Below, in pieces: positions 2,510 through 4,474 of a stretch of DNA of 64,000 nucleotides. Below the pieces are notes generated by a model. The model was given only the letters and a program-made list of their open reading frames with translations. It searched no databases and was not told the origin of the DNA. Every line of letters begins with the position of its first letter. The first letter of the stretch is position 1. The DNA is from Octopus vulgaris. Its lineage: Eukaryota. The stretch covers positions 58,714,001 to 58,778,000 of the forward strand of contig OX597827.1 of assembly GCA_951406725.2 (NCBI GenBank), read 5' to 3'. A program made the position numbers and the translations under genes.

Positions 2510-2875
2510 TACATATATATATATATATATATATATATATATATATATATATACATATATATATATATATATATATATATATATATATATATATATATAT
2601 ATAATATATATATATATATATATATATACATATATATATATATATATATATATATATATATATATATATATATATATATATATATATATATATATATATA
2701 TATATATATATATATATATATATATATATATATATATATATATATATATATATATATATACTATATATATATATATATATATATATATATATATATATAT
2801 ATATATATATATATATATATATATATATATATATATATGTATGTATATATATATATATATATATATATATATATA
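2510..2875. repeat. (TA)n microsatellite flanking a hammerhead-bearing element
   Basis: About 360 bp of nearly pure TA. Confidence 0.97.
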
Positions 2876-3163
2876 ATTTCAACAATTGAGGGTAAAATTA
2901 ATTAATTATTAATCAATTTCACCAAGTATTCAGTATGCAAAGGGACCATTTAAGGCGAATTCAAATTATTACATTATATAAAAGGGCTTAGTAAAATAAA
3001 TTACTTTGCCACATACTGAACTCATTAGAAATAGTAGCCAAAAAAAACTTTTTTAAAACTATTTCTAATACTTAAAGAAAATCTCTCTCATATAGTGTTT
3101 GCTCAATTCAACTCACGAAAGTATGGGGGTAAAGACATTAAAAAATCAAATGCAAAGGTTATT

Positions 3164-3215
3164 TGAGAACGTACGTTTCTAGATTAGTCAACTCGACATT
3201 TCTTTCGTCAGCTCA
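3164..3215 (-). ncRNA. Type I hammerhead ribozyme motif (inverted copy)
   Basis: Reverse complement of 3551-3602. Confidence 0.7.
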
Positions 3216-3550
3216 GAACTCCTTGGTTTGGATTTGAAAACACTGAAAGTGGGAGCATACCCTTTCGGCTTCTTATCGCTTCTGAAGATCTGCTCGAACT
3301 ATCAGTGCCAGCAAACTCAAAATATGCAAGCGAAGAATTTCTGCTCTCCCCTTTCCACCAGCGTGGGTTAAAATCAGTAGACACTATGCTTTTTCGGTAA
3401 AATCCGAAGCATTAGGGGAGAGCAGAAATTCTTCGCTTGCATATTTTGAGTTTGCTGGCACTGATAGTTCGAGCAGATCTTCAGAAGCGATAAGAAGCCG
3501 AAAGGGTATGCTCCCACTTTCAGTGTTTTCAAATCCAAACCAAGGAGTTC

Positions 3551-3602
3551 TGAGCTGACGAAAGAAATGTCGAGTTGACTAATCTAGAAACGTACGTTCT
3601 CA
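3551..3602 (+). ncRNA. Type I hammerhead ribozyme motif
   Basis: TGAG-CTGACGA-a aga..gtcg agt tgac..tct a-GAAA-C GTAC G-TT-CTCA. Stem I is tgag/ctca, stem III is palindromic (ACGTACGT), cleavage triplet GUU. Confidence 0.7.
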
Positions 3603-4110
3603 AATAACCTTTGCATTTGATTTTTTAATGTCTTTACCCCCATACTTTCGTGAGTTGAATTGAGCAAACACTATATGAGAGAGATTTTCTTTAAGTATTA
3701 GAAATAGTTTTAAAAAAGTTTTTTTTGGCTACTATTTCTAATGAGTTCAGTATGTGGCAAAGTAATTTATTTTACTAAGCCCTTTTATATAATGTAATAA
3801 TTTGAATTCGCCTTAAATGGTCCCTTTGCATACTGAATACTTGGTGAAATTGATTAATAATTAATTAATTTTACCCTCAATTGTTGAAATTATAATTCAT
3901 CTCTCTCTATTTAATGCTTCGGATTTTACCGAAAAAGCATAGTGTTTACTGATTTTAACCCACGCTGGTGGAAAGGGGAGAGCAGAAATTCTTCGCTTGC
4001 ATATTTTGAGTTTGCTGGCACTGATAGTTCGAGCAGATCTTCAGAAGCGATAAGAAGCCGAAATGGTATGCTCCCACTTTCAGTGTTTTCAAATCCAAAC
4101 CAAGGAGTTC

Positions 4111-4162
4111 TGAGCTGACGAAAGAAATGTCGAGTTGACTAATCTAGAAACGTACGTTCTCA
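4111..4162 (+). ncRNA. Type I hammerhead ribozyme motif (tandem copy, +560)
   Basis: Identical to 3551-3602. Confidence 0.7.
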
Positions 4163-4474
4163 AATAACCTTTGCATTTGATTTTTTAATGTCTTTACCCC
4201 CATACTTTCGTGAGTTGAATTGAGCAAACACTATATGAGAGAGATTTTCTTTAAGTATTAGAAATAGTTTTAAAAAAGTTTTTTTTGGCTACTATTTCTA
4301 ATGAGTTCAGTATGTGGCAAAGTAATTTATTTTACTAAGCCCTTTTATATATATATATATATATATATATATATATATATGTATGTATATATATATATAT
4401 ATATATATATATATATATATATATATATATATATATACATACATACATACATATATATATATATATATATATAT

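Follow-up and report, generated by a model that had tools for sequence, protein, structure and literature searches.

An insertion at positions 2872-4351 of a 64,000-nucleotide stretch of the Octopus vulgaris genome (hereafter the window) is real and young, and belongs to a large non-coding family. The family is dispersed, mobile and present in many copies, and it is built of tandem non-coding units. Our overall reading, which we consider probable, is that a PLE-type reverse transcriptase (RT)-endonuclease writes both arms of an insertion from one RNA, a ligated monomer circle. We have great confidence in one component of this reading, namely that the PLE-type enzyme primes at two sites on one RNA. 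We lean only modestly toward the more demanding proposition that the family records Penelope insertion on a 560-nt circle, with cleavage and ligation obligatory in every generation. If that proposition is true, a single mechanism would cover the tandem arrays of retrozymes together with the tail and the inverted pLTR of Penelope elements. The family offers countable evidence both on tandem and inverted PLE insertion and on retrozyme circles as templates, and the 560-nt RNA with its 170-nt two-hairpin module provides a compact test substrate in a genome that holds young, intact PLE proteins.

The insertion and its family

The insertion lies in a (TA)n target microsatellite identified by Tandem Repeats Finder on both sides (left flank, 2480-2871, within a call of 2480-2875; right flank, 4352-4474). 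Unit positions (q) are counted from window position 3414, which is q1. The left arm (2872-3414, minus strand; 543 nt) comprises q499-560 and q1-481 and ends 3' at the distal of two fixed sites (T), while the right arm (3414-4351, plus strand; 938 nt, or 1.68 units) comprises q1-560 and q1-378 and ends at the proximal site (S). The arms meet head to head at position 3414, one base that is common to both. A tail of ~100 nt (q379-481; 2872-2974, minus strand) is present at the end of the left arm only, following the rule described below for the whole family. The first-pass annotation of this DNA had described an inverted repeat joined to a tandem of nearly identical copies, with TATA microhomology running into (TA)n, and its structure and coordinates are borne out. 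Positions 2872-3352 and 3414-3894 form an inverted repeat of 481 nt at 100% identity, the tandem has a period of 560 and an overlap of 378 nt at 99.7% identity, the copies differ at two sites in total (3504/4064 and 3380/3946), and the 3' ends of both arms overlap the flanking (TA)n through TATA or TATATA. Taken alone, this locus does not discriminate a circle from an uncleaved multimer.

Across the genome (2.8 Gb in 227 contigs), the hammerhead core described below has 1,847 exact matches, against 1 for the reversed control, which excludes chance for the motif; the distal (T) 3' end running into TA has 841 matches, and its control has 0. Two samples underlie the counts that follow. Sample 1 comprises 40 loci, the best-scoring of 2,137 candidates, and in all 40 the units abut directly; sample 2, chosen by the T end, follows genome order along contig 1 and includes 60 of its first 65 distal-end matches. 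The longest array of the family contains 13.7 units (L035). A tblastn comparison with three local PLE proteins covered 60 loci, and in none of them does PLE coding sequence adjoin an arm. The contrary possibility raised by the first-pass annotation, that the other copies are simply pLTRs belonging to a coding element, does not describe the loci tested.

Two further features of the window were observed. A minus-strand frame of 168 aa at 31668-32174 has no Pfam match and contains an FSIDAIL stretch, which we take to resemble the eh1 repressor motif; the frame may be a homeobox-gene exon. A broken LINE-type reverse transcriptase (RVT_1 match) lies at 59676-60860 on the minus strand.

Two fixed 3' end sites and the priming of the arms

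The 3' ends of the family cluster at two sites ~100 nt apart, S (q378-394) and T (q476-481), and two-armed loci use one of each in nearly every case. In sample 1, 30 of 40 loci are two-armed, with 24 S+T pairs, 5 pairs of T with another end, 1 of S with another end, and neither S+S nor T+T. When ends were shuffled among the 29 independent two-armed loci, the absence of same-class pairs was reproduced in 0 of 200,000 trials (mean, 11.5 such pairs). The partner of the T end in sample 2, where 44 of 60 loci are two-armed, is S in 43 and T in none; the five other loci of the 65 have S in 4 and T in 1, giving 47 S, 1 other and 1 T over the 49 two-armed loci taken in genome order. The one pair with matching ends (L125) has T at both. 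Ends at neither site occur in 6/30 two-armed loci of sample 1 and 1/44 of sample 2. The first-pass annotation had the two arms end at different points of the monomer; these points are not freely permuted but fixed at S and T, and among the copies it is the 5' ends alone that vary.

This pair of fixed sites is the Penelope "tail" signature, here ~100 nt long. The same layout is visible in a young coding element with RT and GIY-YIG domains that targets TA: each of its 8 head-to-head pairs, selected by orientation only, has a ~30-nt tail on exactly one outer end. A sister non-coding family represented at ~4720-5035 of the window has a one-sided tail in 9 of 10 loci. According to the available text of Frangieh et al. 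(PMC11167929), a PLE protein, predicted to act as a dimer, cleaves both strands and extends them, starting at two RNA sites, which bound the tail. The rule that we observe in genomic copies suggests that, on a single RNA, each strand takes a different one of the two start sites.

Both end sites fall within a terminal module common to the sister families (3724-3894, plus strand), which is predicted to consist of an outer helix and two hairpins, one before S (3756-3781) and one before T (3843-3875). In the four families with this module, a predicted hairpin ending in CC precedes each end site. Covariation within the module is weak, with change on both sides in 4 of 40 pairs (5 sequences). The module is likely to be the enzyme-binding and priming signal.

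The sister families are of interest in their own right. The element at ~4720-5035 is a second two-armed insertion with a tail on its left arm only; a fixed-ended MITE was considered for it and ruled out by the variable joints and the one-sided tail. Other copies of its family carry a hammerhead with an A.A closing mismatch and are apparently tandem, and more copies lie near 47185, 53675 and 57006-57300 of the window. A third family (L225, G000:C2:149444522-149447765) is tandem, with a unit of ~556 nt and a U3-A8 hammerhead core, and has the terminal module and two end sites as in the 560-nt family. The fourth (L234:1302-1870) is ~165 nt long and consists of the module alone, in three copies between TA runs; no hammerhead was seen in it, and this family suggests that the terminal module is sufficient for mobilization.

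Young coding PLEs are present in the genome. One very young family encodes a protein of 775 aa (L250-L283; at least 127 copies with 100% protein identity over the query) and has a hammerhead-like motif in which position 4 is C and the closing mismatch is U.U. A young, TA-targeted family of 781 aa (L110-L116) has a cysteine linker that we presume to be Neptune-like and, close to its 3' end, a hammerhead-like motif with U3-A8. Searches by GIY-YIG family, by protein and with two sister families found no helper PLE with a matching end; the comparison of PLE 3' ends covered 30 loci out of 150 scored GIY-YIG matches among 6,136 candidates. The 3' end of the 775-aa element scored 54 (shuffle mean, 70).

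The lengths of the two arms are coupled. When both 3' ends are placed in one and the same unit, no more than 30 nt separates the two 5' ends at 22 of 44 loci; shuffling gave a mean of 4.2 such loci and a maximum of 13 in 100,000 trials. End positions in this comparison are good to a few bases, and one locus (L176) is ambiguous. Such coupling points to one RNA molecule as the source of both arms. The joints share 1 to 4 bases in most loci and contain a short spacer in a minority. Near-perfect palindromes and asymmetric loci show no difference in age (P = 0.18). One pair of loci (L051 and L052, G000:C9, ~80 kb apart) has like flanks and a like joint, with the center flipped and a difference of one unit, which indicates that arrays were altered after insertion by recombination between arms, or that these loci were misassembled.

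Hammerhead motif and RNA template

Three hammerhead-like cores occur in the insertion, starting at 3555 (plus), 4115 (plus) and 3211 (minus). The motif at 3547-3605 (plus strand), recognized by sequence and conservation, is of type I and combines a CUGACGA core, a long stem II, GAAA, a palindromic minimal stem III and a GUU cut site, with cleavage predicted after 3598. The core pattern identifies a second plus-strand copy at 4107-4165 (predicted cut after 4158) and a left-arm copy at 3160-3218 (minus strand; predicted cut between 3168 and 3167 in standard numbering). The hammerhead parts and the two plus-strand cut sites were assigned by eye with standard hammerhead numbering. The predicted cut-to-cut RNA (3599-4158, plus strand) would be a non-coding monomer of 560 nt with 34% GC, and its predicted folding is far more favorable than that of shuffled sequences (z = -5.3); the longest ATG-initiated frame in the unit is 19 aa. 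A further hammerhead-like motif with a palindromic stem III was observed at 39947 of the window, on the minus strand.

Stem II of the motif at 3547-3605 is closed by an A.A mismatch at positions 10.1 and 11.1, and the 10.1-11.1 pair is absent from 223 of 230 units of the family. These two positions (q149 and q173; window 3562 and 3586) change together, being U.U in 194 units and A.A in 28; a paired U-A is rare (7 units) and A-U does not occur, a pattern that would be expected if a closed pair were disfavored. Rfam yielded no hammerhead match in the whole window at the gathering threshold, and at E ≤ 10 nothing but hairpin look-alikes. Energy minimization does not fold the isolated motif into a hammerhead, and neither the monomer fold nor the two-copy fold contains one. 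The missing pair, the lack of an Rfam match and the lack of a hammerhead fold count against our overall reading.

Changes inherited by whole loci spare the core. Among loci other than those selected via the core pattern, none of the 16 sites in the core and stem III has an alternative allele fixed within a locus, versus 152 of 500 other sites (P = 0.0045), whereas changes within loci are equally frequent in both classes, at ~0.3% (8/2,285 versus 226/68,460). This contrast suggests that a copy would need an intact ribozyme core to found new insertions; selection on the core is at most an indirect sign that the transcript may cleave itself.

A cut linear monomer does not appear to be the usual template. 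Only 3 of 104 5' ends fall at the cut site (q181-191), without enrichment; 47 of 88 arms pass through it; and q182-189 is unaltered in 236 of 239 units, the remaining 3 having single substitutions, so stops are few, read-through is common and scars are lacking. The earlier idea of read-through on a circular or multimeric RNA is thereby supported across the family. The templates also appear to have been homogeneous. Units of one locus differ by a mean of 0.5%, whereas the haplotypes of different loci differ by 4.5%. We compared arms in register at 62 two-armed loci (of 100 loci, 35 were dropped as not two-armed, 2 as lacking a T end and 1 as lacking units), with homopolymers and end regions masked. 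There, 64 unit-specific variants are lacking in the unit of the other arm at the same depth and 1 is shared in register, which argues for homogeneous templates; of further variants in these loci, 4 are shared one unit off and 3 in other subsets, and 38 are not scorable. Gene conversion could also homogenize units. Four loci (L048, L051, L062 and L065) have variants common to both arms but one unit out of register, and the shared variants of the 13.7-unit array are not nested, neither of which is predicted by a pure monomer circle. Inherited variants carry no significant signature of A-to-I editing (private, 6 A>G versus 9 T>C; shared, 13 A>G versus 8 T>C, P = 0.19).

An obligatory ribozyme, the absence of stops at the cut site and a single-unit bottleneck would together fit a cycle of cleavage, ligation and rolling-circle copying, which the available text of PMC7229834 proposes for retrozymes. 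What supports a circle is indirect evidence from the other copies of the family, not from the insertion at 2872-4351. Assembled contigs of two runs that may be RNA data contain the sequence, but contigs of this kind would not reveal a circle. Circles lack ends, so the coincidence of 5' ends calls for an additional assumption, such as collision, stalling or a nick. In the mechanism that we propose, a tandem transcript would cleave itself, probably as a dimer, and the monomer would then be ligated into a circle. A PLE dimer would bind the two-hairpin module, and both strands of (TA)n would be cut. Each cut end would pair through TATA and prime at one of these sites; the two polymerases would then proceed 5'-ward and, if processive, travel round the circle. 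Finally, a few bases of microhomology or an end-to-end jump would join the two cDNAs at their ends.

Several alternatives must be weighed against this mechanism. We regard it as unlikely that two-site PLE priming used a linear RNA multimer that was copied off a genomic array and never cleaved, with no circle involved. For the single PLE tested in vitro, the available text of PMC11167929 describes the ribozyme as dispensable and unprocessed RNA as the main template, which counts against an obligatory circle and favors a linear multimer. Run-off at a common RNA end would be the simplest account of the coincident 5' ends, the out-of-register sharing in four loci fits a heterogeneous template, and the longest arrays are possible sources of such RNA. 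Yet of 65 informative variants just 1 occurs in register in both arms, as expected of homogeneous templates; lineages that differ by 4.5% and contain uniform arrays would require a single-unit bottleneck followed by re-amplification; and the core is conserved specifically in inherited haplotypes. It is very improbable that priming occurred once, with the second arm made by fold-back self-priming and the arm lengths scrambled by later central flips. Self-priming on an antisense template has been proposed for Penelope palindromes (PMC3846280), near-perfect palindromes make up half of the two-armed loci, and L051 and L052 form a flipped duplicate pair. Neither arm is contained in the other, however, at 21 of 44 loci and at 2872-4351 itself; two loci (L152 and L153) have arms with little or no overlap, which neither copies nor flips would produce; and the joints of three (L157, L160 and L174) have no loop. 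The non-contained and barely overlapping arms argue against the fold-back of a single cDNA and for two priming events, and, with the S/T rule, they support across the family the early suggestion that both target ends prime.

The satellite-like route discussed in the available text of bioRxiv 10.64898/2026.07.22.740005 would have short PLE-type insertions expanded and homogenized later by unequal crossing-over and gene conversion. The one-unit difference between L051 and L052 fits such expansion, as do variants common to subsets of units in three loci (L035, L037 and L060), but expansion requires a tandem to exist beforehand, and the insertion at 2872-4351 is almost unmutated and already contains 1.7 units. 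Sites shared by subsets are few (15, versus 114 singletons), and the S/T rule and core conservation would go unexplained; we consider this route most improbable. To an assembly artifact as the source of the palindrome we give almost no credence. The joint at 3414 is not among the listed pieces of contigs from other sequencing runs, but short-read contigs from two other runs join left-arm to right-arm sequence at other positions, more than 70 loci have the same architecture with differing joints and a strict end rule, the three copies at this locus differ at two sites, and a coding PLE has the same layout.

Relation to known systems

We found no octopus retrozyme and no count of one end site per arm in the open literature, and PMC9977147 has no bearing on the family; subscription papers, Repbase and supplements may differ. 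Head-to-head arms are familiar from L1 twin priming, in which both target ends prime the RNA and the arms are joined by short microhomology. The 560-nt family differs in that its priming sites are fixed ~100 nt apart, its arms usually overlap and either arm can exceed one unit.

The family shares many features with metazoan non-LTR retrozymes as characterized in the available text of Cervera and de la Pena 2020 (PMC7229834) and of Li, Clavereau and Pollet 2026 (bioRxiv 10.64898/2026.07.22.740005). Both consist of non-coding, low-GC tandem units with a type I hammerhead in each; the unit length is in range, the predicted RNA is strongly self-paired, and a PLE helper is proposed. The first-pass annotation had judged 560 nt larger than typical retrozymes, which does not hold against the consensus lengths of 51 to 972 bp given in the available text of the latter study, where retrozymes are also linked to PLE pLTRs. 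Head-to-head arms, fixed 3' sites and (TA)n targeting set the family apart from these retrozyme accounts, as far as their available text goes; the words "inverted" and "target site" have 0 occurrences in that of PMC7229834. A second difference from the retrozymes described there is the hammerhead motif without a 10.1-11.1 pair. The same sources report retrozyme circles and cleavage demonstrated by experiment, whereas those of the 560-nt family are predictions from sequence.

The likeness to EN+ PLEs is equally extensive. Partial tandems, a 5'-truncated copy inverted head to head and a tail confined to one end are features of both (PMC3846280 and, in their available text, PMC8557442 and PMC11167929), as are AT-rich or (TA)n targets and a minimal hammerhead with a palindromic stem III (available text of PMC4209133). 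Minimal PLE hammerheads are described as having weak, dimer-dependent activity in the available text of PMC4209133 and PMC6765202. Unlike EN+ PLEs, the 560-nt family has no ORF between its units, a tail of ~100 nt instead of 30 to 40 and arrays of up to 13.7 units, and its sequence does not match the 3' end of any coding PLE family sampled. In its sequence features the family conforms to a metazoan non-LTR retrozyme, and its insertion works like that of a PLE.
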